A stretch of DNA of 39,990 nucleotides from an uncultured Gammaproteobacteria bacterium (GCA_964408825.1 CAYPAU010000005.1:1-39990); one strand, 5' to 3'. Counted from the stretch's first letter, positions 1 to 39,990 are shown. Notes: generated from the letters alone by a model not told the origin. Made by a program: numbers and translations.

Positions 1-14
1 TTATTATATTATAT

Positions 15-797
15 ATGACCATTCCCCAGGCTCTGATTAAAAGAACTACCGATGAGGTTATAGAAGAGACCGTAAAAACGGTAAGTGTCCCAGGATTCCG
101 CAAGGGAAAAGCTCCAAAGAAGCTCGTGGAAAAAGGGGTGGATAAGCAAAAGGCAAAAGAAGAGGTCTTAAAAAAATTATTACCGCAAGCGTATGTTTCT
201 GCAGTAGAAAAAAATGGTATAAAACCAATTATAAATCCTCGAATTCACGTAGATGAACTTTCTGATGATAAGGATTGGAAATTTACAGCATCAACATGCG
301 AGGCCCCTCAGGTGAATCTAGGTAATTACAAAGAGAATGTAAAAAAACTCACGGTCAAAAGTAAAATTATTCTTCCGGGCAAACAAGAACAAAAAGAGGT
401 AGCTGCAAATGACCTTCTTAAAGTTGTAGCTGATAGCGTTCAAGTTAAAGTATCGAAAATTATAATAGAGCAGGAGGTTGAGAGACTTCTTGCGCAAACA
501 CTTGATGAGATAAAAAAACTTGGGCTTACTTTGGATCAATATCTCTCCTCGACAAAAAGAACAGCCGAGGATCTCAGAAAAGAGTACGAAAAAAAGGCCT
601 TATCAGACATAAGACTTGAGTTTGCACTTTCTAAAATCGCGGAAGTTGAAAAAATAACAGTAACAGATAAAGACATCGATGAGGCTATCAAGGATGCCAA
701 AGATGATAACGAAAGAAAAAGTCTTGAGGCCAACAGATATCTTCTTGCAAGCATTATTAGACAGCGAAAAACGCTTGATTTTATAAGAAGTTTGTGA
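15..797 (+). CDS. tig: Trigger factor, short form (ribosome-binding N domain plus C-terminal chaperone domain, no PPIase domain)
   Basis: TF signature GFRKGKAP at aa 27-34 and a helical C-terminal domain. It is 260 aa versus about 430 aa typical. The frame is open to the window edge, but TATTAT(2-7)-N7-ATG(15) fits the leaderless start pattern. Confidence 0.8.
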   Translation: MTIPQALIKRTTDEVIEETVKTVSVPGFRKGKAPKKLVEKGVDKQKAKEEVLKKLLPQAYVSAVEKNGIKPIINPRIHVDELSDDKDWKFTASTCEAPQVNLGNYKENVKKLTVKSKIILPGKQEQKEVAANDLLKVVADSVQVKVSKIIIEQEVERLLAQTLDEIKKLGLTLDQYLSSTKRTAEDLRKEYEKKALSDIRLEFALSKIAEVEKITVTDKDIDEAIKDAKDDNERKSLEANRYLLASIIRQRKTLDFIRSL

Positions 798-803
798 TAA
801 CTT

Positions 804-1448
804 ATGCTATCAATGAAAAACCAAACCAAAGGTAAGAAAACTCAAAGTTTTGTCGACCAGAACCCCGTTGAAGCTGTAACAAATATTGGAAGGGGTGTCA
901 GAGATTCTGTTGTGGATGATTTATTTAAAGGCGGGGTAAAAGAGGCTTGGGAAAAAATATTGGGAGCGGAAGACCTGGAGGATCAATCTTCAGGAGAACT
1001 TGAGGAAGGAAAAGAAATAAGTCTTAAAAAGAAGAAAAGACCGGAAAAGCGGGAAGGGTTTAGAGAGCCCGGAATCGATTACAGAAGAGAAATTATAGAC
1101 GCTGAGAAAATTTCCGTAAGAGAAAACCAAAAAGTTATACAGTCACAGATTCAGGAAATACTTGTCGAGCTTAAAAAGTTGTCCCAAACATCAGCGGAGA
1201 TTGCAATGGAATTTAAGGAGATAACAATTGAACAAAGAATTGAAAATCCGGGCGAATATCATATCTCATTCTTCCAATGGATGCTTTCGCTTGTAAAAGC
1301 GGCAAGAATAAAAATAGAAGATTCGGGAGCTTGGCTTAAGGTTATGAGAAGCAAAAAAGCACAGAGAAACTACTGGGCTATGTTTAAAAAACACGGTACG
1401 ACTTTTGGGCTTTCAAACGAGCGCGTTGTAGCAACTCAGACGGGATAG
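804..1448 (+). CDS. Hypothetical protein (charged Lys/Glu-rich N half, conserved-looking C half)
   Basis: 214-aa ORF starting 6 nt after the tig stop with coding-like composition. An alternative ATG lies at 813. No family recognised. Confidence 0.55.
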   Translation: MLSMKNQTKGKKTQSFVDQNPVEAVTNIGRGVRDSVVDDLFKGGVKEAWEKILGAEDLEDQSSGELEEGKEISLKKKKRPEKREGFREPGIDYRREIIDAEKISVRENQKVIQSQIQEILVELKKLSQTSAEIAMEFKEITIEQRIENPGEYHISFFQWMLSLVKAARIKIEDSGAWLKVMRSKKAQRNYWAMFKKHGTTFGLSNERVVATQTG

Positions 1449-1451
1449 CTC

Positions 1452-1482
1452 TTGACAAAAGATTTATATTCTGCTCTATAAT
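1452..1482 (+). promoter_or_regulatory. Sigma70-like promoter: TTGACA (1452-1457), 19-nt spacer, TATAAT (1477-1482)
   Basis: Both hexamers are perfect consensus, in an intergenic position. The spacer contains the TTCTGCTCTA box shared with the major pilin promoter. Confidence 0.6.
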
Positions 1483-1630
1483 AGATTAACCATGGATAAA
1501 AAGTTCCTCATCATTGTTGCTTTTAACCTCCTTATCGGAGGTTAGCAACGTGGGAGGAATTTGGTAAAGCCAAATTTTAACAACTTAAACCTCCCACAAG
1601 GGGTTTTTCAGTTTAAGGAGGTAATAGATT
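1483..1630 (+). promoter_or_regulatory. Structured 5' leader with a 17-codon mini-ORF (1492-1545, MDKKFLIIVAFNLLIGG) and two strong hairpins
   Basis: Hairpin 1 spans 1516-1549 (GTTGC/GCAAC plus TAACCTCC/GGAGGTTA). Hairpin 2 spans 1550-1597 (GTGGGAGG/CCTCCCAC enclosing AATTTGG/CCAAATT). SD AAGGAGGT lies at 1615-1622. Confidence 0.45.
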
Positions 1631-1882
1631 GTGGACAATAGAGAAAGTTTAGGCAGACAAATAAACTTTAAGGAATTTGAGGCATTGAGGAGAAATGGAT
1701 GGGTTGTTGAGGGATCATTTCCGGATGATAGAAGTGTAGTAATATTCGATGGAACAAGCGAAAATTCCCAAGAAATTCCGGTCGAACCCCAAGTAATGTA
1801 TTCAGGTATCGGGGAATATAGAACTGCAGTTACGGTTTTTGTCCCTCCTCAGGAGATTTTTGAACAAGTAGTAAATTCCTAA
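1631..1882 (+). CDS. Hypothetical 83-aa protein (GTG start)
   Basis: A strong SD (AAGGAGGT) lies 9 nt upstream of the GTG. No family recognised. Confidence 0.55.
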   Translation: MDNRESLGRQINFKEFEALRRNGWVVEGSFPDDRSVVIFDGTSENSQEIPVEPQVMYSGIGEYRTAVTVFVPPQEIFEQVVNS

Positions 1883-1906: not shown

Positions 1907-1983
1907 GGGCTCATAGCTCAGTTGGTTAGAGCGTTGCATTGACATTGCAAAGGTCAGAAGTTCGACTCTTCTTGGGCCCACCA
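1907..1983 (+). tRNA. tRNA-Val (anticodon GAC), CCA encoded
   Basis: Hand-folded cloverleaf. Acceptor GGGCTCA/TGGGCCC, D stem GCTC/GAGC, anticodon stem TTGCA/TGCAA with loop TTGACAT, T stem AGAAG/CTTCT with loop TTCGACT, discriminator A plus CCA. Total 77 nt. Confidence 0.93.
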
Positions 1984-2005: not shown

Positions 2006-2014
2006 TGATATACT
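2006..2014 (+). promoter_or_regulatory. Extended -10 box TGaTATACT, 6 nt before ATG 2021 (leaderless-type)
   Basis: TG 2006-2007, TATACT 2009-2014, N6, ATG 2021. Confidence 0.5.
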
Positions 2015-2020
2015 ATAGAT

Positions 2021-2251
2021 ATGGCAAGGTTTGAACAAGCTGCAAAAACCTTAAGAGAAATTCTTCTTAATAATTTTCTGGGCGGTCTTGCATGGGCTGT
2101 TGGAGCAACTGTGGGAATTTCTATAATAATTTTCCTTCTAACGAATGTCTTTAAAAATGTCGGATGGATTCCCTTTATAGGTGACTTTATTTCAAATTTG
2201 ACAAGTTACGTCCTTTCGAATTTACAAAACAACCCTCAATTGATAAAATAG
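2021..2251 (+). CDS. Small membrane protein (76 aa, hydrophobic core segment)
   Basis: ORF with the hydrophobic stretch LGGLAWAVGATVGISIIIFLL. It sits directly upstream of thrS and has a leaderless-type -10 box. Confidence 0.55.
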   Translation: MARFEQAAKTLREILLNNFLGGLAWAVGATVGISIIIFLLTNVFKNVGWIPFIGDFISNLTSYVLSNLQNNPQLIK

Positions 2252-2256
2252 CCTGA

Positions 2257-3459
2257 ATGAAAACTTCAAAGCTTAAAGATCATAGACAAATCGGACAAGA
2301 ACTTGACCTTTTTTCTTTTCATGAATATGCGCCCGGGGCAATATTTTGGCATCCCAAAGGCTGGATCATATATAGAACTCTACAAGAATTTTTAAGAAAC
2401 GCCACGCTAGCAGAGGGGTATCAGGAAACATCAACTCCTGTTCTTGTTAAAACTGAGCTTTTCAAAAAATCGGGGCACTGGAAATACTTCAGGGAAAACA
2501 TGTTTAATCTAAAACTGGATAACCAAAGTTATTCCTTAAAACCCATGAATTGTCCCGAATCAACGATTATCTACAGTTCAAAGATTAGAAGTTATAATGA
2601 TCTCCCCATAAAACTATCGGAGTACGGTATTCTTCACAGAAACGAACTAACCGGAGTTTTAGGAGGAGGGCTGCGCGTAAGACAGTTTACGATTGACGAT
2701 GCCCACTTGTTTGTCCGGCCCGATCAAGTAGGAAAGGAAATAGAAAAACTTTTAGCACTCGTAATTAAAGTTTATAAATCCCTAGGATTTAAACCTAATT
2801 TCTATTTAGCAACGAGACCCGATAAGGCAATGGGAGATCCTAAAACATGGAAAGAAGCCGAAAAGGATCTTGAAATGGTTCTTAAGAGTACAAGAGTTTC
2901 ATTTGGTATGAAACCGAAGGATGGAGCCTTCTATGGACCGAAGATAGATATACATACCAATGACTCGCAGAGAAGAGACTGGCAGCTTGCAACAATTCAA
3001 TTGGATTTCCAAATCCCTCAGAAGATGAGTATTTTTTATATCGATAAGGATGGAAAGAAGAAACAACCTGTTATGATCCACCGGGGGATAACCGGATCTT
3101 TGGAAAGATTTATTTCAATATTGCTCGAACACACCCAAGGTAATTTACCCCTCTGGCTTTCACCCATACAAACTATAATTCTTCCAATAACTGATAGGCA
3201 ATTAGACAACGTAAGAAAAATAAACAATAGACTTTTAGAAACGGGTTTTAGATCCCAAATCGATGATCGCTCCGAAACCCTTCAATCAAAAATTCGTGAG
3301 GCTACTTTACAAAAGATACCATACCTGGGTATAATTGGGGATAAAGAAGTTGAAACCGGAACTGTTTCCGTAAGAAAAAGGGATGGCGAGGATCTAGGAC
3401 AAATGGAGGTCGCAAAATTCCTAAATTTATTAAAAGAAGAAATTGATAAAAAGACATAA
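2257..3459 (+). CDS. thrS: Threonyl-tRNA synthetase, catalytic core plus anticodon-binding domain only (no TGS/editing N-terminus)
   Basis: It starts at the class II core (DHRQIGQELDLF...) and is 400 aa versus about 640 aa typical. Synteny thrS-infC-rpmI-rplT-pheST. Confidence 0.92.
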   Translation: MKTSKLKDHRQIGQELDLFSFHEYAPGAIFWHPKGWIIYRTLQEFLRNATLAEGYQETSTPVLVKTELFKKSGHWKYFRENMFNLKLDNQSYSLKPMNCPESTIIYSSKIRSYNDLPIKLSEYGILHRNELTGVLGGGLRVRQFTIDDAHLFVRPDQVGKEIEKLLALVIKVYKSLGFKPNFYLATRPDKAMGDPKTWKEAEKDLEMVLKSTRVSFGMKPKDGAFYGPKIDIHTNDSQRRDWQLATIQLDFQIPQKMSIFYIDKDGKKKQPVMIHRGITGSLERFISILLEHTQGNLPLWLSPIQTIILPITDRQLDNVRKINNRLLETGFRSQIDDRSETLQSKIREATLQKIPYLGIIGDKEVETGTVSVRKRDGEDLGQMEVAKFLNLLKEEIDKKT

Positions 3460-4078
3460 AAGAAAACCGGATACTAGAAAGTTTTACAGAGTAAATGAAC
3501 GCATTTACGCCAGTACCTTGCGAGTATTGGGGCAGGACGGAAAGCAAATTGGAATATTTTCAAAATATGAAGCTCTCAAAAAAGCAAGAGAAGAGGGACT
3601 TGATCTCGTAGAAATTGCACCATCTGCCTCACCTCCCGTTGCAAAAATAGTAGACTTTAATAAATTTATTTATCAGGAGGAAAAGAAAAAACGGGAGGAG
3701 AAAAAAAAGTCAAAAGCTTCCGAAACTAAGGAGCTTAGACTTGGTCCCTTTATGGATGAGCATGATCTTATGGTCATGATAAGACGCGCCCGGGAATTTA
3801 TAGGTAATGGAAATAAGGTTAAATTTGTAGTAAAATTCGCAGGACGACAGATAGCACATCCTGAATTTGGAGAAAGAATCTTACAAAAAGCACTGGATGA
3901 GTTATCCGATATTTCAAAGACAGAAAGAGAAAAACATTTCGAAGGCAGACAGCTGATTGCGATAATTGCCTCCGACAGAAAGAGGAAGAAATCAAATCAG
4001 AATAGGCCCGAAGAGATAAGAATAAAGGAGGAGCAGAAAAAAAATGGCAAAGAAGAAAGTAAAAAAATCAATCAGTAA
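3443..4078 (+). CDS. infC: Translation initiation factor IF-3 with Lys-rich C-terminal tail
   Basis: Conserved RVNERI...LRVLGQDGKQIGI...GLDLVEIAPSASPPVAKIVDF. Only TTG (3443) or ATA (3446) is available as a start after the in-frame stop at 3431-3433. Confidence 0.9.
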   Translation: MIKRHKRKPDTRKFYRVNERIYASTLRVLGQDGKQIGIFSKYEALKKAREEGLDLVEIAPSASPPVAKIVDFNKFIYQEEKKKREEKKKSKASETKELRLGPFMDEHDLMVMIRRAREFIGNGNKVKFVVKFAGRQIAHPEFGERILQKALDELSDISKTEREKHFEGRQLIAIIASDRKRKKSNQNRPEEIRIKEEQKKNGKEESKKINQ

Positions 4079-4241: not shown

Positions 4242-4270
4242 AAGAGTTATTAGTTGTTCGTTATTACCTG

Positions 4271-4292
4271 CCTGCCTGCAGGCAGGGTTTTT
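4271..4292 (+). terminator. GC-rich palindrome CCTGCCTG/CAGGCAGG followed by a T-run
   Basis: Perfect 16-nt palindrome at 4271-4286, then GTTTTT. It lies between rpmI and rplT and may act as an attenuator or partial terminator. Confidence 0.45.
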
Positions 4293-4677: not shown

Positions 4678-4705
4678 CCTGCCTTGCCGGCAGGCAGGCC
4701 TTTTT
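4678..4705 (+). terminator. Rho-independent terminator-like hairpin CCTGCCT...AGGCAGG plus TTTTT
   Basis: 7-bp GC-rich stem at 4678-4698 followed by CCTTTTT, downstream of rplT. Confidence 0.6.
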
Positions 4706-4791: not shown

Positions 4792-4800
4792 TGATATTCT
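4792..4800 (+). promoter_or_regulatory. Extended -10 box TGaTATTCT, 6 nt before pheS ATG 4807
   Basis: TG 4792-4793, TATTCT 4795-4800, N6, ATG. No SD present. Confidence 0.45.
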
Positions 4801-4806
4801 ATAAAT

Positions 4807-5856
4807 ATGGAAGAGGAACTTATTGGAATTAAAAATTCGGCCGTATCCCTTATTCTTGATGCAAAAGATCCCAAAGAGATTGAAGATTTAAAAGTTCAAT
4901 TTCTGGGAAGATCGGGAAAATTAACTCTTCTTATTAAAGAAATTCCGAAGTTGCCGGTTGGAAAAAGACCTGAAATAGGAAGACTTGCTAATGAAGTGAA
5001 AACAACCATTGAGGAAACTTTAGAGTCTCAAGATAAAATCTTAAGAAACGTAAAAACTAAATCCCTAAAAGAAAGGGTCGATCCAACAATGCCGGGTATT
5101 AAACCTAAGCTGGGTCACCTTCATCCTCTTACTCAAGTCATTTATGACGTGGTTGATGTTTTCAAAAGTCTTGGTTACCAGGCAGCTGACGGACCCGAGA
5201 TTGAAACTGATTATTATAATTTCGAAGCATTGAATATTCCCAAAGACCACCCGGCAAGGGACACTCAGCAAACATTTTATCTTGATATCAGAAATTCAAA
5301 AGTAAATCCGGGAGAAATAATTTTAAGAACACAAACATCTGCAATGCAGGCAAGAGTAATGGAGAAAATAAAACCACCCGTACGCGTAATTGTCCCAGGT
5401 AAAAACTTCAGATACGAGCAGGTTGATGCTTCTCATGGATTTGAATTCTGGCATCTTGAAGGTTTTTGCGTAGATAAAAATATAAGACTTACCGACCTCT
5501 TCGGAACGATCGATTACATTTTAAGAAAAGCGATGGGAGAATCCGCCAGCCGGCGGATTAAAATAAAATTTGCAACAACTAATTTCCCGTTTGTTGAACC
5601 CGGTGTGGACACTTATGTCGAGTGTACTGTTTGCAAAGGTAAGGGTTGCGGTTTTTGCAAATACTCCGGGTGGAGCGAAATAATGCCGGCAGGAATGATA
5701 CATCCAAATGTATTAAAAGCAGTCGGATATGATAGTAAGAATTTTTCCGGCTTTGCCTTTGCAATAGGTCTTTCAAGACTTGTGACTCTACGATACCAAA
5801 TGGACGATCTAAGACTTTTGACAAACCCGGATCTAAGAATTCTGGAACAATTTTAA
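4807..5856 (+). CDS. pheS: Phenylalanyl-tRNA synthetase alpha subunit
   Basis: Class II motifs (HPARD, FRYEQVDASH, GFAFAIGLSRL), 349 aa. Confidence 0.95.
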   Translation: MEEELIGIKNSAVSLILDAKDPKEIEDLKVQFLGRSGKLTLLIKEIPKLPVGKRPEIGRLANEVKTTIEETLESQDKILRNVKTKSLKERVDPTMPGIKPKLGHLHPLTQVIYDVVDVFKSLGYQAADGPEIETDYYNFEALNIPKDHPARDTQQTFYLDIRNSKVNPGEIILRTQTSAMQARVMEKIKPPVRVIVPGKNFRYEQVDASHGFEFWHLEGFCVDKNIRLTDLFGTIDYILRKAMGESASRRIKIKFATTNFPFVEPGVDTYVECTVCKGKGCGFCKYSGWSEIMPAGMIHPNVLKAVGYDSKNFSGFAFAIGLSRLVTLRYQMDDLRLLTNPDLRILEQF

Positions 5857-8587: not shown

Positions 8588-10941
8588 GGTCCGGGGATAA
8601 GTGGAGTAGGTGTTGGGGTAGGGCTCGGGGTTGGCGTTGGGGTTGGATTATTTTCTTCCTTCTTAGATTCTCCCGTATATCCTGAAGTTTCTGTGGGCGG
8701 ATGGTATTTCTCATCACCGGCATACTGGCCCGAGAGCCATGCACTTATCCCCTCCTGCCATCTATTTTTTCCATCAGTTGAGACAGGATCATCTTCGTGG
8801 AAAACAATATAATCTTTTGTGTCATATTCTTTATTTTCTATTTCCCAGGGGCTTGCAAGCTTACCCGAATCATGCCTTGACATTTTTACTTTTTGATAAA
8901 TATTTCCCGACCCGATCGGCTCCGTCCCTTTTATAAAGTACTCGGATCTTGTCGGCTGACCTCCTACAGGCAACCCTCCGCCTAAAGCATCTATTTCAAG
9001 AGCAATAACGCTATCGGGTTTTTTGGGAGATTCGTCTTTTTTACCTTCTAAAACAAAACTCATTACCCTGTTCCAGATAGGAGAGGCACCAGTTGCGCCT
9101 GATGCAATTGTAGGGTTCATTGGACTATTATCGTTATTTCCCACCCAAATCCCTACGACGAAAGAAGGTGTGTATCCAACGGCCCAGTTGTCTCTCTTCT
9201 GATCTGTTGTACCAGTTTTTACGGATACAGTTTTCCCCGGAATATTAAGATATGACCTTGTACCAAAAATCAGTGATCTCGCATTATTGTCTAAAAGAAT
9301 ATGAGAGATAAGAAAAGCAACTCCTTCGGATAAAACTCTTTCTCCGTTTTTCTTCTTATGTTCAAAGAGTTTTTTTCCTTTACTGTCGGTTACCTTAAGT
9401 ATTATAACCGGATTTTGTTTAACACCTTGATTGGCAAATACCGAATATGCGACGGCCTCATCAAGAAGAGATGTTTCTCTCCCTCCAAGAACAAGAGATA
9501 ATCCTACGTCTTTAAGATTTTCCGCTGTCGGCTCCCAGTTTTCTATTCCCATTGAATAACCTTTTTGCATTACGTCTTTTATGCCGACTCTTGCAAGCGT
9601 TTTGACTGCGGGGACGTTGATTGAATTACCTAAGGCAAATCTTATTTGCATAGGACCCCTAAATTTTCCATCATAATTTTCCGGGGTATATATGGGATGG
9701 GCGGCTTCATTTGTGGGAAAATCAGTTTTAACATCTATAAGGAGAGTCGATGGAGTATAACCTTTTTCAAAAGCTGTCGCATAAACAACAGGCTTTAAGG
9801 AAGACCCGGGTTGCCTCCTTGCTAAAGCAGTATTGAAATTTCCGTCATTATCTTCATCGAAATAATCCTTACTTCCTACCATCGACAAAATTTCTCCAGT
9901 CTTTGGATCCATGACAACTGCTGCTCCGTTTCCCACCCGATATCCCTTAAGCTTTTCAATCTCTTCTCTTACAATTTTTTCTGCCTCCTTTTCTATTTCG
10001 TAGTCGAGTGTAGTTGTTACCTGAAGACCTCCTTGCTCAACAGCTGATTCCCCAAACTGTTTTGCTAAAAGCTGTTTTACATAAATAACAAAATGAGGAG
10101 CCTTTATACTCTCGTCTCTTTTTGTGAATTTTTTATTTTTTATCTCAGAAAGCGCCTTTTCTTTCTCTTCTTTTGTTATGTATTTCTCATCAACCATCTG
10201 CTTCAATACCGCCTCGGTTCTCCCTATGTAGTATTTATTTCCTGAATAAGGAGAGTAGATGCTTGGAGATTGAGGCAAACCTGCAAGAAAAGCACTTTCC
10301 GCAAGATTTAAATCTCTTACATCCTTGCCAAAGTAGCTTTGAGCGGCTGCCTCAACTCCGATATTTGCTCCCCCATACGGAACATCATTTAAGTACATTT
10401 CAAGAATTTGGTCTTTTGAATATCTCTGATTAACCTGAATAGCAAGCATTAATTCCTTGATTTTTCGAGGAACAGTTTTTTCCGATGAGAGAAGAACTGT
10501 TTTAACAAGCTGTTGCGTAATTGTCGAACCACCCGTTAATCCTTTAAAAAGAAGAATGTCTCTTATTGCGCGGATGTAGCCAAAAATTGAAAAACCTTGG
10601 TTTTTATAAAAATCCCTATCTTCTATTGCGATCGTCGCTTCTTTAAGATTCTGTGGAATATCCGAAAGTTTTACATAGGTTCTGTTCTGATCCTGATAAA
10701 CAGAGTAGAGGAGGACACCTTTTCTGTCATAGATTCTTGTTGAATTTGCAAGCTGGGCATCTATTAATTTGCCGGGAGTGGGCAGATCTTTACCATACCA
10801 AAGAAATAAAACTATTGTAAGCAAAACCAAACCAATAAATCCGAGGAGTGCGTATCTTGAAAGCTTTGAGTAGAGAAGAATTTTGGAGTAATTACTTTTT
10901 CTAAACCTTGTCCTTCGACTGCGTCTTGCGTAATCAACCAT
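8584..10941 (-). CDS. Class A penicillin-binding protein (glycosyltransferase plus transpeptidase) with a C-terminal Pro/Thr tail
   Basis: N-terminal TM, GT51 motifs (EDRDFY, GGSTITQQ), transpeptidase SSLKP and KTGTT, and the tail PTPTPTPSPTPTPTP. Confidence 0.92.
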   Translation of the reverse strand: MVDYARRSRRTRFRKSNYSKILLYSKLSRYALLGFIGLVLLTIVLFLWYGKDLPTPGKLIDAQLANSTRIYDRKGVLLYSVYQDQNRTYVKLSDIPQNLKEATIAIEDRDFYKNQGFSIFGYIRAIRDILLFKGLTGGSTITQQLVKTVLLSSEKTVPRKIKELMLAIQVNQRYSKDQILEMYLNDVPYGGANIGVEAAAQSYFGKDVRDLNLAESAFLAGLPQSPSIYSPYSGNKYYIGRTEAVLKQMVDEKYITKEEKEKALSEIKNKKFTKRDESIKAPHFVIYVKQLLAKQFGESAVEQGGLQVTTTLDYEIEKEAEKIVREEIEKLKGYRVGNGAAVVMDPKTGEILSMVGSKDYFDEDNDGNFNTALARRQPGSSLKPVVYATAFEKGYTPSTLLIDVKTDFPTNEAAHPIYTPENYDGKFRGPMQIRFALGNSINVPAVKTLARVGIKDVMQKGYSMGIENWEPTAENLKDVGLSLVLGGRETSLLDEAVAYSVFANQGVKQNPVIILKVTDSKGKKLFEHKKKNGERVLSEGVAFLISHILLDNNARSLIFGTRSYLNIPGKTVSVKTGTTDQKRDNWAVGYTPSFVVGIWVGNNDNSPMNPTIASGATGASPIWNRVMSFVLEGKKDESPKKPDSVIALEIDALGGGLPVGGQPTRSEYFIKGTEPIGSGNIYQKVKMSRHDSGKLASPWEIENKEYDTKDYIVFHEDDPVSTDGKNRWQEGISAWLSGQYAGDEKYHPPTETSGYTGESKKEENNPTPTPTPSPTPTPTPLIPGP

Positions 10942-10948
10942 ACCTTAA

Positions 10949-29482: not shown

Positions 29483-30681
29483 ACCGAAGAAATTAAACTA
29501 TAAATCGGAGTAATAACAGACACCAGAAGAAATGCCACTCCAGCTCCCAGTGTCACCATAATGGCAGGCTCAAGCGCCGTAGTCAGGGTTTTTACGGTTT
29601 GATCTGTCTCAAATTCAAAATACTCAGACGCCTTAAGAAGAGTCTCATCAAGTTTTCCTGTTTCCTCTCCAATTTTAACAAGCTGTGAAAGAACCGGAGG
29701 AAATAAAGAATAAGACGAAAGCGCCTCTCCGACAGAAACTCCATTTTCAACTTTTCTTGCAACTCCCATAGCCGCATTCTTGTAATGAATATTTCCCAAA
29801 GTATCCGATGCCTGAACCAGGGAGTCAACTACGAGAGTTCCCGATCCTACAAGAAGACTTAAGGTTCTTGAAAATTCGGTGAGGATTATTTTTTTTGAAA
29901 GATTGCCAAAAATTGGTATTTTCAAAGTTAGGTTATCGATAACGAGTCTTCCTGCCTGACTTTTATGCCATCTTCCAAATAGAAAGAGCCCCAAGACCAA
30001 TATACCGATTATAAAAGGCCAGAAAGTTATTAAAAAACCCGACATTCCGATAATCATTTTCGTAGTAAAAGGAAGCTCAACGTCTAGACTCTTGTAAAGC
30101 CCTGATAATTGAGGGATAACAACAGTCATCATTATAACAACAACAAGAATCATAAGAAGAACGACAATAGCAGGATAGGTGAGAGCACCTTTAATGGTTC
30201 TATTTAATTTATCTTGTTTCTCAAGATTTTCTGCCAAGCGCGTCAAGGCTTTATCCAAAAGTCCGGATGATTCGGCGGATTTTACGATTGATACGTAAAT
30301 AGGAGAAAAAACATCGGGGGATTTCGATATCGAAGAAGAAAATGTCTTTCCTTCCTCTATATCCGAAATGATTCCTCCGACAATCTCAATTGTTGACTGA
30401 CTAGTAAATTGCTCCTTGAGTATTTCAAGGGATTTCAAAAGAGTAAGACCAGAGGTAAGCATTGAGGAGAGTTGTCTTGTGAAAAGCATTAGGTCCGAGT
30501 GCTTCACCCGACTAAAAAACGGCAAAAATTTTAATATATTATTTTTATCTTCCGAGAAAACAGTAATTGGCACTAATCCTTTGCTCCTAAGATAGGTTAT
30601 GGATTCGGGGATATCTTTGGCTTCAATAAGCCCTCTTATTATTTTATTGTCCTTTGAAATCGCTTTATATCGAAGTTTCAT
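29476..30681 (-). CDS. pilC: Type IV pilus platform protein PilC (GspF family)
   Basis: Duplicated GspF domains and three TM segments. ATG 30681 lies 1 nt after the pilT stop. The track ORF extends to 30708. Confidence 0.9.
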   Translation of the reverse strand: MKLRYKAISKDNKIIRGLIEAKDIPESITYLRSKGLVPITVFSEDKNNILKFLPFFSRVKHSDLMLFTRQLSSMLTSGLTLLKSLEILKEQFTSQSTIEIVGGIISDIEEGKTFSSSISKSPDVFSPIYVSIVKSAESSGLLDKALTRLAENLEKQDKLNRTIKGALTYPAIVVLLMILVVVIMMTVVIPQLSGLYKSLDVELPFTTKMIIGMSGFLITFWPFIIGILVLGLFLFGRWHKSQAGRLVIDNLTLKIPIFGNLSKKIILTEFSRTLSLLVGSGTLVVDSLVQASDTLGNIHYKNAAMGVARKVENGVSVGEALSSYSLFPPVLSQLVKIGEETGKLDETLLKASEYFEFETDQTVKTLTTALEPAIMVTLGAGVAFLLVSVITPIYSLISSVK

Positions 30682-30682
30682 A

Positions 30683-31747
30683 TCAACCGACAAGACGCAA
30701 GAGCTCATCCTGTCTCAACGCATAGCTTCTTGCGGTTTCAAGACTTATGGTTCCGCCTAAGACCAGAGAAGCAAGCGATGACTCAAGCGGAATCATTCCC
30801 ACATCTTGAGAGTTTTGAATAATAGAATCTATAAGATGTGTTTTCCCGTCTCTTATGTTACTTGCGATAGCACTCGTACCAATCAGAAGTTCAACTGCCG
30901 GGATCCTGCCACCTGATATTTGAGGCATAAGTCTTTGAGAAACTATTCCCTTAAGAGTTGCTGAAAGCTGTGCTCTAATTTGGGACTGCTGATCCGAAGA
31001 AAATACATCAATTATTCGGTCTATACTCTGAGAGGCGGAGTTGGTATGAAGAGTTGAAAAAACCAAATGTCCTGTCTCTGCAATTGTAATCGTTGATGCT
31101 ATAGTTTCAGGATCCCTCATTTCCCCAACCAAGACCACATCCGGATCTTCGCGAAGAGCGGAACGTAAGGCCGCCTGCCACGAATTTGTATCCTGCCCCA
31201 TCTCACGCTGAGAGATCAGGCTCTTTCCATGAGGATAGATATATTCGATCGGGTCTTCGATGGTAAGAATATGAACTGCTCTTCCTAAGTTAATTTCATT
31301 AATAATTGCAGCAAGTGTGGTCGATTTCCCATGACCGGTTGGTCCCGCAATAAGAATAAGTCCCTGTTTAAGAGTTGCGAAATTATGAAGATATTTTGGA
31401 AGATTTAGCTCTTCAATCGTCCTTATCTTTGGCTCAAGGAATCTAAATTCTCCGCAAATAAAATTCTTTTGAAAATAAATGTTTGCCCGGAATCGTCCCG
31501 TCTGACCATTGGCACCCTCAAAACTAAAGGAGAAATCAAGCTCTTTATTTAAAATAAATTTTTCTTTTTGCGACTGATTAAGAAGCGAGAAAATCATACT
31601 GTGTGTATCTTCTCCTGAGAGAGGCAGAGCGTCTGAGACGAATGAAAGCTCACCATCAATGCGAAGAGAAGGAGGAACTCCGGGAATAAGATGTAAATCC
31701 GATGCCTTACTGTTTACTGTAAGATGTAAAAGGTGTTGAATATCCAT
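30683..31747 (-). CDS. pilT: Twitching motility (retraction) ATPase PilT
   Basis: Walker A GPTGHGKST, Asp box, Walker B VVLVGEMRD, His box FSTLHTNSA. 354 aa. Confidence 0.92.
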   Translation of the reverse strand: MDIQHLLHLTVNSKASDLHLIPGVPPSLRIDGELSFVSDALPLSGEDTHSMIFSLLNQSQKEKFILNKELDFSFSFEGANGQTGRFRANIYFQKNFICGEFRFLEPKIRTIEELNLPKYLHNFATLKQGLILIAGPTGHGKSTTLAAIINEINLGRAVHILTIEDPIEYIYPHGKSLISQREMGQDTNSWQAALRSALREDPDVVLVGEMRDPETIASTITIAETGHLVFSTLHTNSASQSIDRIIDVFSSDQQSQIRAQLSATLKGIVSQRLMPQISGGRIPAVELLIGTSAIASNIRDGKTHLIDSIIQNSQDVGMIPLESSLASLVLGGTISLETARSYALRQDELLRLVG

Positions 31748-31750
31748 AAA

Positions 31751-31785
31751 CTAGTTGCTAGCGACTAGTTACTAGTGGCTAGTTA
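31751..31785. repeat. Heptamer array ctagttg ctagcga ctagtta ctagtgg ctagtta in the pilB-pilT spacer
   Basis: Same CTAGT word family as 10964-10996. It runs into the pilB stop codon. Confidence 0.85.
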
Positions 31786-33516
31786 TTCTTGTGCTACTCT
31801 TATTACCTCCTCGGGTGTCGTTATGCCAGATAGAACCTTAAAGTAGCCATCCTGTTTCATTGTTATCATTCCCTCATTTAACGCTTCTTTCTGAACGGCG
31901 GCACTGCCCGGGCGCTCAAGAATAAGATTTGCCATTTTCTGAGAAATCGGTAAAACTTCAAAAATACCAATTCGACCCAAATATCCAGAGCCTGAACACT
32001 TATCGCAACCTTTTCCTCGATATAATTTAAGTTCTGAACCATTTGGAGACGGATATAATTTTCCCAAAACATTTTTTATCTCTTCTGTAATTTGTCTAAG
32101 TGGAGCATACGGTTCTCTGCATGTCGCACAGACTCTTCTGACAATTCTTTGCCCGACAACCGCATTCATTGTCGATGAAAGAAGAAAGGGCTCAGCACCC
32201 AAATCTATAAGACGAGGTATTGCTCCAGCCGCATCTGAAGTATGAAGTGCCGAAAAAACCAAATGTCCCGTGAGTGATGCCTGAATAGCAAGCTCGGTGG
32301 TTTCTCCGTCTCTTATTTCTCCAACAAGGATTATATTGGGGTCTTGTCTTAAGAATGACCTAAGACCTGTTGCAAAAGTAAGTCCCACACCGGGATTTAT
32401 CTGTATCTGATTAACTCCCGGCATTTGATACTCAACAGGATCTTCAAGGGTCATAATATTAACTCTTGTTGTATTAAGTTTCTCCAAAACCGCATAAAGA
32501 GTAGTAGTTTTACCAGATCCGGTCGGACCACAAACCAATATAACTCCATGCGGGCGAAGAATCGATGTTTCTAAATTTTTAAGAGATGTTCCCGTAAGAC
32601 CAAGTTCGGGAAGAGTAGGTATTCCTCCTGATTTACGAAGAAGCCTCATCACAATCTTCTCTCCAAAGGTTGTCGGCATTACGGAAATACGAAGATCCAC
32701 TTCGTTATTGTCTACTTTGAAATTAAAACGGCCGTCCTGTGGCATTCTGTGTTCATCGATTTTCATGTCGGAAAGGATTTTGATGCGGGATATGACTGCT
32801 TCCTGAACGGTCTTTGGAAGACTCAGCCTGTCATACAAAATACCATCTATTCTGTAACGCACTCTGATTCGATCTTCCTGCGGTTCAATGTGGACATCAG
32901 AGGCTCTGCTTGATACCGCATATTCAAGAATAGTTGAAACGATTTTGGCAATAGGAGCCTCTTTTATAATCTCCGCAATTTCCTTACTGTCGATGGTTTT
33001 TGCCTTAATCAGCTCCTCTGTCTGCTTTATAGCCTCTCCGACTTCTCCTACGATTTCCTGTTTGTACTGTTGTCTTATTGCTGTTTTTATATCCTCAAAA
33101 GGTGCTGCAAAAGTCTTGAGGGTAAGTCCTGTTTTTTGTCTGACAAATTCCAAGGCTTCAAGGTCTACGGGATTGGCCATTGCGACGGACAAGGTTTTTG
33201 TCCGCTCGTCATACATAAAGGGGATAAGCGTAAATCTTTCGGCAACAGCTCTTGAAATCATTGAGAGGGCAAGAGGAGAAAAGGATGTTGAGGAAAGTGA
33301 GATAAAAGGAATTCCTAAGAGTCTTGCCTTGGCTTCTGCAATTTTATCGGAGGAAACAATTCCTGACAACAAAAGAGTCTCTTCGTATGATTTGTCTAAG
33401 CTTGCGGCTTTAACCTTAATATCCTGAACCTGTGAAGGGGTCAAGATATGCTCGGAAAGCAGAATATCAAGTATCGTAGACTTTATGGAATCTGTATTAA
33501 AATCTGTGGCGGGCAT
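31783..33516 (-). CDS. pilB: Type IV pilus assembly ATPase PilB (GspE family)
   Basis: N-terminal GSPII domain, Walker A GPTGSGKTT, tetracysteine CATC...CDKC, 577 aa. Confidence 0.93.
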   Translation of the reverse strand: MPATDFNTDSIKSTILDILLSEHILTPSQVQDIKVKAASLDKSYEETLLLSGIVSSDKIAEAKARLLGIPFISLSSTSFSPLALSMISRAVAERFTLIPFMYDERTKTLSVAMANPVDLEALEFVRQKTGLTLKTFAAPFEDIKTAIRQQYKQEIVGEVGEAIKQTEELIKAKTIDSKEIAEIIKEAPIAKIVSTILEYAVSSRASDVHIEPQEDRIRVRYRIDGILYDRLSLPKTVQEAVISRIKILSDMKIDEHRMPQDGRFNFKVDNNEVDLRISVMPTTFGEKIVMRLLRKSGGIPTLPELGLTGTSLKNLETSILRPHGVILVCGPTGSGKTTTLYAVLEKLNTTRVNIMTLEDPVEYQMPGVNQIQINPGVGLTFATGLRSFLRQDPNIILVGEIRDGETTELAIQASLTGHLVFSALHTSDAAGAIPRLIDLGAEPFLLSSTMNAVVGQRIVRRVCATCREPYAPLRQITEEIKNVLGKLYPSPNGSELKLYRGKGCDKCSGSGYLGRIGIFEVLPISQKMANLILERPGSAAVQKEALNEGMITMKQDGYFKVLSGITTPEEVIRVAQE

Positions 33517-33523
33517 TACTTCT

Positions 33524-33553
33524 ATACTAAGTAAAAATAAGCTATAATGTCAA
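33524..33553 (-). promoter_or_regulatory. pilB promoter TTGACA-N18-TAGTAT, with the -10 box 7 nt before ATG 33516
   Basis: The minus strand reads cTTGACAttatagcttatttttactTAGTATagaagtaATG. Confidence 0.55.
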
Positions 33554-33670: not shown

Positions 33671-34339
33671 ATGAGATCTTTCATTTTGGCTTCAAAAGAC
33701 ATTAATAGAGGGCTTGAGTACGTCTTTGAAATTTTTCAAAAAAAAATCGACAAACTGGATATAACGGTAGAATCTTTTGAAAAATCTGTCGGGATAGAAG
33801 ACGTAAGGAATTTGCAAAAAAAATTGTTTTACAAACCCTTACGGGGAGACACTAAGGTTTTTGCAATAAATGCCGAAAATGGGATAACAATTGAGTCCCA
33901 AAATGCTCTTCTTAAAATTCTTGAGGAACCACCACTTAGCACATTCATGTTTCTTATAGTTAAAAATACCAATATTCTACTGCCGACTATTTTATCAAGA
34001 TGTAAGATTATTAAACTGGGGGGAGAAAAAGATGACATTTCAGAAAAAGAAATTTCCGAATTTGAAAAACTTATCGGAAAATTGTCCTCAAGGGATATAA
34101 ATTTCAAGCTAAAACTTGCTCAAGATCGGGGAGAAGATAGGGAGGAAGCAATCCTTTGGTTTGAGAAAGCAATTTTTGCTGCAAGAAAGATACTGTTTAA
34201 TAAACTGAATTCTCAAAGTACTGAAGACTTAGAGAAAACATTAAAAATAATAAAGAAACTTGAGGAAGGTCACTATTTTACCCAAAACACCAATGTTAAC
34301 CCACGCTTCATCCTTGAAAATACTCTTTTATCAATTTGA
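33671..34339 (+). CDS. holB: DNA polymerase III delta-prime-like subunit, truncated form
   Basis: Motifs NALLKILEEPP and LPTILSRC. It is 222 aa and has no N-terminal P-loop segment. Confidence 0.72.
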   Translation: MRSFILASKDINRGLEYVFEIFQKKIDKLDITVESFEKSVGIEDVRNLQKKLFYKPLRGDTKVFAINAENGITIESQNALLKILEEPPLSTFMFLIVKNTNILLPTILSRCKIIKLGGEKDDISEKEISEFEKLIGKLSSRDINFKLKLAQDRGEDREEAILWFEKAIFAARKILFNKLNSQSTEDLEKTLKIIKKLEEGHYFTQNTNVNPRFILENTLLSI

Positions 34340-35664: not shown

Positions 35665-36420
35665 ATGGGGAATGATAAATTGAAAATGGAAAATCAAAAA
35701 CCGAATGTTTTTGTCCTGCATGGCTGGAGTTATTCTGTTGATCAATGGAAGCCTTTCATATCTGCTCTAAAAAAAATAAAATTAAAACCTGTCCTTCTTA
35801 AAATCCCCGGCTTAACAGATGAGATAAGAAATCCATGGGCGCTTGATAATTATATAGACTGGCTTTTTGATGAAGTCAAAGATGAAGGAAAAATAATATT
35901 AATAGGCCATTCAAACGGAGGACGAATTGCCATGGCTTTTGCTTTAAAATACCAGGATAAAGTTTCAAAGCTGATTTTAATTGACAGCGCCGGAATTTAC
36001 CACGATGATATTATCATAAAAATTAAAAGATTGATCTTTAGATCTATTGCGAAAACAGGAAAAAAAATTATCCCTTCGCAAGCTACCAGAAACTTTTTGT
36101 ATTTCCTAACAGGAGAGAGTGATTATAAAAACGCAAATGAAATTATGCGAGAAACTATGATAAATCTAATTGAGGCAGATAAAACTTTGGGAATAGAAAA
36201 AATACTCGCTCCTACTATTATAATATGGGGGGAAAATGACAGAGTAACTCCGCTTTCAGATGCAAGACTATTAAACAAAGGAATAGTCAATAGTAAATTA
36301 TTTGTAGTTAATAATGCCCGACACTCTCCACAGTTTACCCATCCACATGAAGTCGTAAAAATCATTTTTAACAACCTGCCTGCCGCCCGCCTGCCGGACG
36401 GGCAGGGCAGACAGGTTTAA
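35665..36420 (+). CDS. Alpha/beta hydrolase
   Basis: Nucleophile GHSNGG, WGENDRVTP, and His in ARHSPQ. The last 13 or so codons are encoded by a GC-rich hairpin element. Confidence 0.75.
   Translation: MGNDKLKMENQKPNVFVLHGWSYSVDQWKPFISALKKIKLKPVLLKIPGLTDEIRNPWALDNYIDWLFDEVKDEGKIILIGHSNGGRIAMAFALKYQDKVSKLILIDSAGIYHDDIIIKIKRLIFRSIAKTGKKIIPSQATRNFLYFLTGESDYKNANEIMRETMINLIEADKTLGIEKILAPTIIIWGENDRVTPLSDARLLNKGIVNSKLFVVNNARHSPQFTHPHEVVKIIFNNLPAARLPDGQGRQV
36374..36418 (+). repeat. GC-rich imperfect palindrome (CCTGCC...GGCAGG family) plus T-run at the 3' end of the hydrolase gene
   Basis: AACCTGCCTGCCGCCCGCCTGCCGGACGGGCAGGGCAGACAGGTTT. It shares its core with the hairpins at 4271 and 4678. Confidence 0.7.
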
Positions 36421-36430
36421 CAATTTTATT

Positions 36431-37621: not shown

Positions 37622-37631
37622 TTCATGATTC
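37601..37631. repeat. Heptamer array ttcttaa ttcataa ttcttaa ttcatga spanning the DegT stop and the FemAB start
   Basis: Stop TAA at 37619-37621 and ATG at 37625 are both embedded in the array. Confidence 0.85.
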
Positions 37632-38638
37632 AACCAAAAGAAATAAGTAGTAAAACCGAGTGGGAAAACTTTTTAGCAAATCACGAGGAGGCAAATTTTC
37701 TTCAGTCATGGTATTGGGGAGAATTCCATAAAAATCTTGGTCAAGAGATTATAAGAACCGGGTTTTACAAAAATAATAAATTAAAAGGGGTCATGCTTTC
37801 AATTGTCGAAAAAGCCAAAAGAGGAAGGCATCTAATAGTTCCAGGAGGACCCATCATTGATTGGGAAGATAAAAAAATAGTCGAAAGCTTCTGTAAAGAA
37901 ATAAAAAAAATTGCATATATTTACGATTGTGCTTTTATAAGAGTAAGACCCCAGCTTGAATCATCCGATTTTTCAAAAAATCTGTTTAAAAACTGCGGAT
38001 TCATAAACGCCCCCATGCATCTTCATGCACAGCTCACATCTCAACTTGAGATTACAAAATCTGAGGAAGAGTTGCTTTCCAATATGAGAAAGACGACTCG
38101 TTATGAAATAAAAAAGGCAGAGAAAGAAGGGGTTAAAATAATCTCTTCGAAAGATCCGAAAGACATACAAGGGTTTTATGATCTTCAAATACAGACTTCG
38201 CTTCGCCAAAGATTTATCCCTTTTCCTTATGAATATTTACATGAACAGTTTAAAGTTTTGGCAGAGAATAATCTTGCACTTTTATACAATGCTCTTTTTG
38301 AAAAAAAACTCTTAGCTCAAGCTTTTATAATATTTTATGGCAGTGAAGCAGTTTATCATTACGGTGCAAGTACTGATGAAGGAAGAAATCATCCGGGAGC
38401 ATATCTAATACAATGGGAGGCGATAAGGGAAGCAAAAAAAAGAGGTCTTAAAAGATACAATCTTTGGGGTATTGCTAATGACCCAAAGCACAGATTTTAC
38501 AGTTTATCAATATTTAAGCGGGGATTTGGTGGGCAGGACGTTGAATATCTTCAAGCACAGGATCTCGTAATAAATTATCCAAGATATTTAATAAATCTTT
38601 CCATAGAACGTCTCAGAAAAATCCGCAGAAGAGTCTAG
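37625..38638 (+). CDS. FemAB-family peptidoglycan interpeptide-bridge aminoacyltransferase
   Basis: FLQSWYWGEF and YHYGASTDEGRNHPGAYLIQWEAIREAKKRGLKRYNLWGI. Confidence 0.85.
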   Translation: MIQPKEISSKTEWENFLANHEEANFLQSWYWGEFHKNLGQEIIRTGFYKNNKLKGVMLSIVEKAKRGRHLIVPGGPIIDWEDKKIVESFCKEIKKIAYIYDCAFIRVRPQLESSDFSKNLFKNCGFINAPMHLHAQLTSQLEITKSEEELLSNMRKTTRYEIKKAEKEGVKIISSKDPKDIQGFYDLQIQTSLRQRFIPFPYEYLHEQFKVLAENNLALLYNALFEKKLLAQAFIIFYGSEAVYHYGASTDEGRNHPGAYLIQWEAIREAKKRGLKRYNLWGIANDPKHRFYSLSIFKRGFGGQDVEYLQAQDLVINYPRYLINLSIERLRKIRRRV

Positions 38639-38690
38639 ATTTCTAAAAATCTCAGTTCTATTTCCTATGGAAGTTTAGCCCGAATTTTTG

Positions 38691-38696
38691 TATAAT
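38691..38696 (+). promoter_or_regulatory. -10 box TATAAT, 6 nt before gyrB ATG 38703
   Basis: tttTTGTATAATtaaactATG. No SD present. Confidence 0.5.
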
Positions 38697-38702
38697 TAAA
38701 CT

Positions 38703-39990
38703 ATGCCAAAAAGCTTTAATAAACCTCAGAAATCATCTTCTGATTATTCTGCGAAAACCATACAAGTTTTAGAAGGACTAGAGCCTGTACGCAAAAGGCC
38801 GGGGATGTATATCGGCTCAACCGATGTTGCTGGTCTTCACGAAACGCTCAGGGAGATAATTGATAATGCTGTTGATGAAGCTTTAGCAGGTCACGCCAAA
38901 AATGTCTGGATAAGCCTTAACTCCGACGGTTCGGCGACGGTCATAGATGACGGAAGAGGAATCCCCGTTGACATAATGCCGCAATACAAAAAATCCGCGC
39001 TTGAGATAGTCATGACCAAGCTTCATGCGGGAGGAAAATTCGGGGGATCCGCTTACAAAATATCAGGAGGTCTTCATGGAGTAGGTTCCTCGGTCGTAAA
39101 CGCATTGTCAAAATGGATGTGGGTTGAGGTAAAAAGAAACGGAAAAATCTTCAGACAAGAATATCAGAAGGGTTTTCCAAAAACCAAAGTTGAAGCTGTT
39201 CCAAAAACCAAAATAGAATTCAACAATTTTAGAGATGAAAGGAAAATGGGCACGGCGGTGACTTTTCTTCCGGATGGCGATGTCTTCCCAGAAACCCAGT
39301 TTGACTTCGATATGGTGAAAAAAGCCATAAGGGAAAGGGCCTATCTTGTACCAAGTCTATATTTTCATCTTTATGACTCAAGAAGCGAAAAGCAGAACGA
39401 GGTTCATTATTATTTTGAAGGCGGAATTACCTCCCTTGTAGCAAGACTTAATGACAACAAAGATCCACTTCACAAAGTAATTTTTATTCAAAAACAAGAA
39501 GGGGAAGTTGAGGTTGAGGTAGCTCTTCAATACAATAACGGCTATTCGGAAAATGTCGAAAGTTACGTAAATGTAATAAACACAGTAAATGGGGGAACGC
39601 ACCTAACGGGGTTTAGAATGGCTTCAACCCGAGCAATAAATGATTACGGCAAAAAGATCGGAAGTTTTAAAAACGAAGAGGAGGGAATCTTAGGAGATGA
39701 TACAAGAGAAGGCTTAACCGCTGTTGTTTTTGTAAAAATGCCTCAGGATAAGATTCAGTTTGAGGGACAAACAAAAGGAAAACTTGGAAACGCGGAAATC
39801 CAGCCTCTGGTTGCGCAGATTGTAAAAGAAGGGCTCTCAACTTATTTTGAGGAAAATCCCAGTGACGGCAGGAAAATTCTTGAAAAAGTGTACTTGGCTG
39901 CCAAAGCCCGTTTGGCGGCAAAAGCGGCAAAGGAAGCGATCCTTAGAAAAGGGGCTCTTGAGGGCTCGTCTCTTCCCGGAAAACTTGCGG
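38703..39990 (+). CDS. gyrB: DNA gyrase subunit B (3' end beyond the window)
   Basis: My own translation gives MPKSFNKPQKSSSDYSAKTIQVLEGLEPVRKRPGMYIGSTD...HEMLREIIDNAVDEA-type GHKL motifs. There is no stop before the window end, so it is absent from the ORF track. Confidence 0.95.
   Translation, partial: MPKSFNKPQKSSSDYSAKTIQVLEGLEPVRKRPGMYIGSTDVAGLHETLREIIDNAVDEALAGHAKNVWISLNSDGSATVIDDGRGIPVDIMPQYKKSALEIVMTKLHAGGKFGGSAYKISGGLHGVGSSVVNALSKWMWVEVKRNGKIFRQEYQKGFPKTKVEAVPKTKIEFNNFRDERKMGTAVTFLPDGDVFPETQFDFDMVKKAIRERAYLVPSLYFHLYDSRSEKQNEVHYYFEGGITSLVARLNDNKDPLHKVIFIQKQEGEVEVEVALQYNNGYSENVESYVNVINTVNGGTHLTGFRMASTRAINDYGKKIGSFKNEEEGILGDDTREGLTAVVFVKMPQDKIQFEGQTKGKLGNAEIQPLVAQIVKEGLSTYFEENPSDGRKILEKVYLAAKARLAAKAAKEAILRKGALEGSSLPGKLA

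Follow-up and report, generated by a model that had tools for sequence, protein, structure and literature searches.

Does transcription at this locus begin at the start codon itself? We analyzed a stretch of 39,990 nucleotides (GCA_964408825.1, CAYPAU010000005.1:1-39990, deposited as an uncultured Gammaproteobacteria bacterium), referred to at its full length as the window, in which a -10-like hexamer, TAnnnT, or its extended form TGnTAnnnT, recurs 6-7 nt before the ATG of genes. The window derives from a genome of Candidatus Levybacteria (Microgenomates, in the Candidate Phyla Radiation (CPR) or Patescibacteria). Its closest tyrS relatives were Candidatus Levybacteria genomes from groundwater (60-74% identity), the sequencing runs containing it were groundwater DNA metagenomes only, and it encodes DUF5660 and DUF5665, which we take to be domains typical of the CPR. 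Its G+C content was about 38%. Leaderless genes with a -10 element adjoining the start codon are textbook knowledge in Actinobacteria and Deinococcus. We consider it highly likely that leaderless mRNAs are widespread here too, the first genes of transcription units carrying the -10 element of a housekeeping-sigma promoter 6-7 nt before the ATG.

The original prediction placed such boxes before at least 12 genes that stand first in their operons, and listed 12. All 12 hexamers, spacers and ATG coordinates were present in the sequence as given, and 11 of the boxes preceded gene starts at the predicted spacings. The remaining one, assigned to tig, did not stand, its ATG at position 15 being an internal Met codon. 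TAnnnT was found at 6-7 nt from 14 of 43 curated gene starts in the window, against 3.2% of 1014 non-start ATGs used as the control (binomial P = 3.8e-11), so that the predicted peak rises far above the AT-rich background. Eight of these hexamers had a spacing of 6 and six a spacing of 7, while every other spacing had 0-2, except spacing 0 (6) and spacing 4 (4). Dinucleotide shuffles predicted 1.23 occurrences of TGnTAnnnT-N6-ATG and 1.27 of TGnTAnnnT-N7-ATG, whereas 5 and 4 were found; 8 of these 9 strings coincided exactly with the starts of conserved genes. We defined a unit-first gene as one with a divergent neighbor or a gap of at least 40 nt, and also classed the 31-codon open reading frame (ORF) orf31 as first. 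By this division, the box was present at 11 of the 18 unit-first genes but at only 3 of the 25 internal ones (Fisher P = 0.001). The sites in the window were as follows.

2006-2023, plus strand: TGaTATACT-N6-ATG, start of the gene for a DUF5665 small membrane protein (2021-2251), just 3' of tRNA-Val

2241-2259, plus strand: TGaTAAAAT-N7-ATG, start of thrS (2257-3459), within the end of the preceding gene

4792-4809, plus strand: TGaTATTCT-N6-ATG, start of pheS

10939-10957, minus strand: TGtTATAAT-N7-ATG, start of the class A penicillin-binding protein (PBP) gene, divergent from tyrS

10994-11011, plus strand: TGtTATACT-N6-ATG, start of tyrS

15074-15184, plus strand: TGgTATTAT-N6-ATG with the 31-codon ORF MDIFRKHQWIWKVIVAVATLALIATSVLPYF, upstream of recG

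17360-17400, plus strand: TTGAAA-N17-TGtTAAAAT-N9-ATG, promoter of an HD-domain gene (ATG 17398), with a predicted leader of about 2 nt, near-leaderless

18684-18721, plus strand: TTGCAG-N17-TAAAAT-N6-ATG, start of rpmF (L32)

19994-20032, plus strand: TTGAAT-N17-TGaTAAAAT-N7-ATG, start of rpsP (S16) at 20030

24291-24329, minus strand: TTGACA-N18-TGgTACTCT-N6-ATG, start of the gene for a 274-aa hypothetical protein heading the pilM cluster

28001-28038, minus strand: TTGACA-N17-CATACT-N6-ATG, candidate leaderless promoter of a pilin gene (27386-28003), within the end of pilD

28735-28749, minus strand: TATAAT-N6-ATG, putative start of pilD (prepilin peptidase) at 28737

33514-33553, minus strand: TTGACA-N18-TAGTAT-N7-ATG, start of pilB, heading pilB-pilT-pilC

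38691-38705, plus strand: TATAAT-N6-ATG, start of gyrB

The promoter at 2241-2259, which heads thrS-infC-rpmI-rplT, was absent from the original list, as were the HD-domain box and the candidate before the pilin gene (28003). A secondary enrichment at spacings 8-9, like that of the HD-domain box, was seen in related loci. Weaker box candidates stood before purD at 12185 (TAATTT-N6) and before a GTG at 7802 (TAAAAT-N7). The 274-aa protein, for which the earlier label "PilX-like" is tentative, had no match in Pfam or NCBIfam.

The rejected tig box (2-17, plus strand) is part of the coding region (T-I-I-L-Y-M) of a trigger factor gene whose start is upstream of the window. In two runs, contigs from strains with 99% identity extended beyond window position 2 in the upstream direction, and the tig frame stayed open through the 30 extra bases taken from their loose ends (...SEITREEDGTIILYMTIPQ...). 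ATG 15 is therefore an internal Met, and the TATTAT belongs to codons for Ile-Ile-Leu-Tyr. In Pfam, Trigger_N aligned only from profile position 18, in agreement with a gene that begins upstream of the window.

Several lines of evidence point to the box-adjacent codon as the true start. The ATGs at 2021, 4807, 10941, 11009, 18719, 24293 and 33516 were each the first possible start after an in-frame stop. In gyrB, an in-frame stop lies two codons upstream of the ATG, which is followed by the usual GyrB N-terminal segment before VLEGLEPVRKRPGMYIG. Position 3 of the L32 profile aligned at residue 5 of rpmF, and position 2 of the S16 profile at residue 10 of rpsP when read from 20030. N-terminal peptides were conserved from residue 1 among orthologues (MDKVEELL, MVDYA, MPQEP, MSVVI and MEEEL), with MPQEP belonging to rpmF and MSVVI or MAVVI to rpsP.

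The box pattern had also been taken to revise several start calls. Orthologue N-termini support two of these, namely rpsP at 20030, where the TTG at 19994 that began the mechanical ORF is the -35 hexamer, and nusB at ATG 18915, whose MKNPL is conserved in orthologues. For pilD, the evidence for 28737 instead of TTG 28752 is the box itself; the A24_N domain begins 8 residues after the box-adjacent ATG. The start of purH may be 13515 or 13533.

Orthologues provided an independent view of the box. Almost all Levybacteria loci had TGnTATACT or cgTATAAT at 6-7 nt from the tyrS ATG, while the upstream region outside the box was unalignable. When tyrS orthologues differed by one or two codons in the length of the N-terminus, the position of the box changed along with that of the ATG. 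Orthologues of tyrS in Peregrinibacteria had TATCCT, TAGACT or TACAAT at 6-7 nt, and the distance of the box was conserved among orthologues with 45-80% protein identity. The counts of orthologues with TAnnnT at 6-7 nt were as follows.

PBP1, unit-first: 21 of 26

rpsP, unit-first: 17 of 24

rpmF, unit-first: 14 of 21

thrS, with its own promoter: 10 of 11

pheS, unit-first: 11 of 24, with further near-misses at 5 or 8

orf31, unit-first: 7 of 10 tblastn matches

274-aa gene, unit-first: 8 of 17

rpmI, internal: 0 of 17

pheT, internal: 0 of 28

rnc, internal: 1 of 26

nusB, internal: 2 of 25

KH gene, internal: 2 of 22

pilM, internal: 1 of 20

hyp235, internal: 0 of 17

hyp463, internal: 0 of 11

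rplT, internal: 1 of 17

The families split cleanly, with the box before unit-first orthologues and almost none before internal ones. These comparative data are the strongest support for reading the box as a leaderless promoter.

The same pattern held across the lineage. We collected about 600 kb from 40 Levybacteria-like loci, comprising 446 genes, in which ORFs of at least 100 aa were taken from the first ATG. Because of this crude calling, the percentages are rough and probably underestimates: the box at 6-7 nt preceded 84 of 259 unit-first genes (about 32%), compared with 4.2% of all ATGs and with 29 of 187 internal genes (Fisher P = 4e-5 for the two gene classes). The spacing of TGnTAnnnT across the 446 genes gave a sharp peak, with 41 at spacing 6, 21 at 7, 7 at 8 and 10 at 9, and no more than 4 at any other spacing out to 44 nt. 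These counts approach the check that had been suggested along with the original prediction. The same peak appeared in 21 Peregrinibacteria loci (0.13 and 0.09 of unit-first genes) and in five other CPR loci (0.22 at spacing 6, n = 23). It was not seen in six proteobacterial loci subjected to the same procedure.

The composition of the boxes resembled that of promoters. When 113 box-bearing starts from the 40 Levybacteria-like loci were aligned on the hexamer, the consensus was TnTGnTATA(A/C)T. A TG one base 5' of the hexamer (-15/-14) was present in 62 of the 113 boxes (55%), compared with 37 of 472 control hexamers (8%), which were TAnnnT elsewhere in the same upstream regions. A T-T-G-a-a-a bias lay 17-18 nt upstream of the box, forming a weak -35 element. 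Since the extended -10 TG and the -35 bias are sigma-factor contacts, the box is a promoter element and not a ribosome site. Within the window, eight boxes had the TG, and the four that lacked it had other strong elements: rpmF and pilB had a TTGnnn -35 at 17-18 nt, and pilD and gyrB a perfect TATAAT. Both TG and -35 were present before rpsP and the 274-aa gene. The promoter elements in the window therefore compensate for one another, like those of classical promoters. The divergent PBP1 and tyrS genes had one box on each strand.

The spacing of the box also bears on where transcription would start. In 49 species, the transcription start was centered 7 bp after the -10 element (PMC12641261). 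A 6-nt spacer, the commonest in our data, would accordingly put +1 on the A of the ATG. Together with the TG and -35 features and the conservation in orthologues, this argues for the predicted reading, a -10 element with its transcription start on or beside the A of the ATG. A pyrimidine at -1 discriminated weakly, being found in 78% of the genes with a spacing-6 box and 59% of box-less genes, with T common at -1 everywhere. Box-bearing genes favored G at +4 (53%).

Shine-Dalgarno (SD) sites, scored as GGAG, GAGG or AGGA within -18 to -3, were at background for all genes of the related loci. They preceded 0.10 of the genes in Levybacteria loci, the same as the 0.10 at all ATGs, and 0.07 of the genes in Peregrinibacteria loci against a background of 0.11. 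In the proteobacterial control loci, the same crude procedure gave 0.23 against 0.07. The near-background level at internal genes was the less expected part of the result. Just two strong sites were present in the window, those predicted before the 83-aa ORF and rpmI.

1615-1633, plus strand: AAGGAGG-N9-GTG, leading the 83-aa ORF

about 1452-1482, plus strand: TTGACA-N19-TATAAT, the likely promoter of the 83-aa ORF, which would give a leader of about 140 nt

4025-4046, plus strand: AAGGAGG-N12-ATG, an SD-like site preceding rpmI, which is internal to the thrS operon

In rpmI orthologues, the region upstream of the gene, which is coding (the 3' end of infC), had only a weak GAAAGGAA and says little about conservation of the SD site. 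Because almost no window gene has an SD site, its absence does not discriminate the box-bearing genes. The view that two initiation modes coexist is incomplete, as most internal genes had neither a box nor an SD site. In the related loci, internal genes were A-rich around the start (A in 61% at -3, 71% at +4 and 67% at +5), and their distance to the preceding gene peaked at -4 (41) and -1 (11), which correspond to ATGA and TAATG overlaps.

Could the boxes have arisen by chance? On this view, AT-rich intergenic DNA at 38% G+C would place TAnnnT beside enough ATGs for selection by eye to give a dozen cases. Both strands of the window held 45 TAnnnT-N6/7-ATG strings, 31 of them off gene starts, and a generic sigma-70 scan found 41 sites against 49 in shuffles. 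Since that scan gave no more than the shuffles, only the position relative to the ATG is informative. A strong in-frame match within tyrS that resembled an internal leaderless start (TGaTAAAAT-N7-ATG at 11980-11998, with ATG 11996 encoding Met330 just before the S4 domain) was conserved in no orthologue and is probably fortuitous. The positional tests, however, refute chance as the general explanation, and we give it practically no weight. The peak at gene starts had P = 3.8e-11, the nine extended boxes compared with a shuffle expectation of 2.5 and eight of them were on gene starts, the distance was kept in orthologues that have diverged to 45-80% protein identity, and an identical peak recurred in 600 kb of independent genomes.

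A second possibility is that the box acts in the mRNA, as a non-SD ribosome-binding or translation-enhancer motif on leadered transcripts like the "group B" motif of Bacteroidetes. Some start signal other than SD is needed when SD is at background for all genes, and A-rich and T-rich sequence 5' of the starts is typical of SD-poor lineages. A ribosome site, though, has no need of the promoter-specific TG (55% versus 8%) or of a TTG at 17-18 nt, nor would it be nearly absent before internal genes (0 of 17, 0 of 28 and 1 of 26 for rpmI, pheT and rnc, for example), where group B motifs do occur (PMC6028130). The PBP1 and tyrS pair, with one box per strand, also fits promoters better. We therefore regard an mRNA signal as improbable. 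Alternatively, the promoters could be real but translation could start at a codon downstream of the adjacent ATG, so that the mRNAs would have leaders. Starts are often miscalled in metagenome-assembled genomes, and those of rpsP, pilD and nusB needed revision from the mechanical ORF start. Nevertheless, the N-termini of L32, S16 and GyrB fit the box-adjacent ATG, peptides are conserved from residue 1, and the box keeps its place relative to the ATG where N-termini differ by one or two codons. This explanation seems to us even less probable than an mRNA signal, if not as remote as chance.

Leaderless transcription from housekeeping promoters remains the explanation we favor. What was observed directly is the motif with its spacing, promoter-type features and conservation, and its limitation to unit-first genes; where transcription starts and how the ribosome binds are inferred. 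Most transcription units have a housekeeping-sigma -10 element ending 6 nt, less often 7, before the ATG, usually with an extended -10 TG and otherwise with a TTGACA-like -35 at 17-18 nt. Transcription by RNA polymerase would initiate on the A of the ATG, about 7 bp beyond the hexamer. The resulting mRNA would begin with 5'-AUG, with neither an untranslated leader nor an SD site, and the ribosome and initiator tRNA would bind this 5'-terminal AUG directly. Termination-reinitiation coupling, or SD-independent entry on unstructured RNA, would probably account for the translation of downstream genes. A few genes, such as the 83-aa ORF and rpmI, retain the canonical AAGGAGG.

Several points weigh against this explanation. 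The unit-first genes recG, holB, mur, pheT and rplT had no box at their ATG. A spacing of 7 may put +1 on the A or leave a 1-nt leader, and spacings of 8-9 may give leaders of 1-3 nt. The gene calls in the related loci were crude, as noted. The 3' end of the 16S rRNA, which holds the anti-SD, was found neither in the window nor in any of the 72 loci. Sequencing runs matching the window were DNA only, with no RNA runs and hence no transcript 5' ends, and three very small SOLiD metatranscriptomes from the study of the relative L002 had no reads on the locus.

A broader proposal is that initiation is essentially independent of SD across large parts of the CPR/Patescibacteria, at least in Levybacteria and Peregrinibacteria, with leaderless starts as the default for unit-first genes, coupling or A-rich entry for the genes after them, and SD at a handful. 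We put this forward tentatively, at slightly less than even weight. If true, independence of SD would be a trait of the whole lineage, tied to the reduced ribosome of the CPR, and the promoter rule could correct many CPR gene starts in public annotations.

Several observations concerned individual genes at these promoters. The 31-codon ORF (15089-15184) gave 10 tblastn matches at E ≤ 1e-8; each lay immediately 5' of recG, and the ORF ended a few nt short of recG in most relatives. The ORF is a genuine, conserved gene for a small hydrophobic protein and had no match in Pfam or NCBIfam. Between it and recG, at 15188-15233, lay a near-consensus promoter, TTGAAA-N16-TATAAT-N6-ATG (11 of 12 matches), whose predicted +1 is the ATG of a 3-codon ORF (M-V-T-stop) 42 nt before recG. 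The spacer in which it lies is missing in relatives. It may be a leaderless mini-ORF at the head of a recG leader of 54 nt, or a chance occurrence.

The product of thrS was just 400 aa, and the ThrRS model TIGR00418 matched over positions 168-565. As the match begins at position 168 of 565, the window ThrRS lacks the N-terminal TGS/editing region, and the truncated start is fixed by the promoter conserved in 10 of 11 orthologues. The start region of infC (GAAATTGATAAAAAG, window 3443) overlapped the end of thrS and was conserved across relatives. Translation of infC may start at TTG or, as known for this gene elsewhere, at a non-standard codon, for example ATT or ATA.

The genes of the window, mapped by Pfam and NCBIfam scans, formed a compact and largely housekeeping set, arranged as follows.

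15-21219, plus strand, beginning of the block: trigger factor, DUF5660, 83-aa ORF, tRNA-Val, DUF5665, thrS-infC-rpmI-rplT, pheS-pheT and a hydrolase

1907-1983, plus strand: tRNA-Val, within that block

between pheS-pheT/hydrolase and tyrS, minus strand: class A PBP, divergent from tyrS-purD-purH

continuing to 21219, plus strand: tyrS-purD-purH, then the 31-codon ORF, recG, the HD-domain gene, rpmF-nusB-rnc and rpsP-KH-trmD

21199-33516, minus strand: type IV pilus cluster (pilB, pilT, pilC, pilins, pilD, pilM)

33671 to the window end, plus strand: holB-like gene, Mur ligase, hydrolase, aminotransferase, FemAB-like gene and gyrB

In the trigger factor (window 1-797), Trigger_N and Trigger_C were separated by only about 12 residues, and no peptidyl-prolyl isomerase (FKBP) domain was detected in the Pfam and NCBIfam domain scans. 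The holB-like ORF (33671-34339, 222 aa), which lies 154 nt from pilB, matched DNA_pol3_delta2 only from profile position 73 and had neither a box nor an SD site at its ATG; it is possibly truncated, or its start may be unusual. CTAG-rich heptad tandem repeats, (AGTNGCY)n, were found at 10964-10993, where they occupy the gap between the back-to-back PBP1 and tyrS promoters, and at 31753-31782, just 5' of pilT. The repeat matched 10 times against 3.3 expected. Similar heptads occurred at the same place in the relatives L001 and L002, and also before other genes in relatives. G+C-rich hairpins with a CCTGCC repeat and T runs were found after rpmI (4267-4286), after rplT (4678-4698) and before the aminotransferase gene (about 36385-36425). 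They look like intrinsic terminators sharing one repeat.

A large part of bacterial diversity falls within the CPR/Patescibacteria, few of which have been cultured. Should the pattern hold, the rule TGnTAnnnT-N6/7-ATG would fix start codons and find small genes in CPR genomes. Applied here, it supports the starts of rpsP, confirmed by orthologue N-termini, and pilD, and it finds the conserved 31-aa ORF. It would also mark the starts of units in the compact operons of the CPR, even where a promoter is hidden within the end of the gene before it, and would show the native expression signal to builders of genetic tools for Patescibacteria. Furthermore, a deep-branching, ribosome-reduced lineage would join the debate on leaderless initiation as the ancestral mode.

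We found no description of leaderless genes in CPR/Patescibacteria in the full-text literature, a search whose coverage excludes subscription journals, and neither promoters nor translation initiation come up in a recent review on the biology of Patescibacteria. The closest paper, Tsurumaki et al. (2022), described shorter S1 proteins in the CPR and, for part of the Parcubacteria alone, a lost anti-SD motif (PMC9297842). Automatic annotation by GeneMarkS-2 may already model the pattern silently. This is a known architecture, found in a lineage for which the searchable literature does not describe it.

The closest parallel is "group C" of GeneMarkS-2, whose first-in-operon genes have a Pribnow box at 6-8 nt from the start codon. 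This group, which comprises 90% of the genomes in Actinobacteria and 97% of those in Deinococcus-Thermus, is predicted to have 25-50% leaderless operons (PMC6028130). Levybacteria resemble its members, such as Mycobacterium tuberculosis, M. smegmatis, Corynebacterium glutamicum and Streptomyces coelicolor, in the motif, the 6-7 nt spacing, the bias to first genes and the lack of SD on leaderless genes. The leaderless-type fraction falls in the group C range: crude calls in the related loci gave about 32%, and the curated window 11 of 18. However, the remaining genes of group C carry SD-type sites at the same distance from the start, whereas the internal genes of Levybacteria are at SD background. 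Unlike Actinobacteria, the window has a low G+C content (38%) and frequent extended -10 TGs. The transcription starts of Actinobacteria have been mapped, while those of Levybacteria are deduced from sequence. In Deinococcus deserti, a majority of the mapped transcripts, 167 of 262 genes, are leaderless, as cited in PMC6028130. The -10-like motif directly upstream of the start codon is shared with this species and with Deinococcus-Thermus; Deinococcus differs in having support from differential RNA sequencing and proteogenomics, and in being an unrelated, free-living organism with a genome of normal size.

The form of the promoter resembles the extended -10 promoters of Firmicutes and E. coli (TnTGnTATAAT), in which the -35 is weak or dispensable and the elements compensate for one another. 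Those promoters normally lie 20-200 nt before the start codon, in contrast to the 6-7 nt in Levybacteria. The TRTG form of the -16 region is typical of Firmicutes. Like the SD-poor Bacteroidetes of group B, Levybacteria have little or no SD and are A-rich around their starts. The group B motif precedes first and internal genes alike and so cannot be a promoter (PMC6028130). The Levybacteria motif, in contrast, is limited to unit-first genes and has the features of a promoter.

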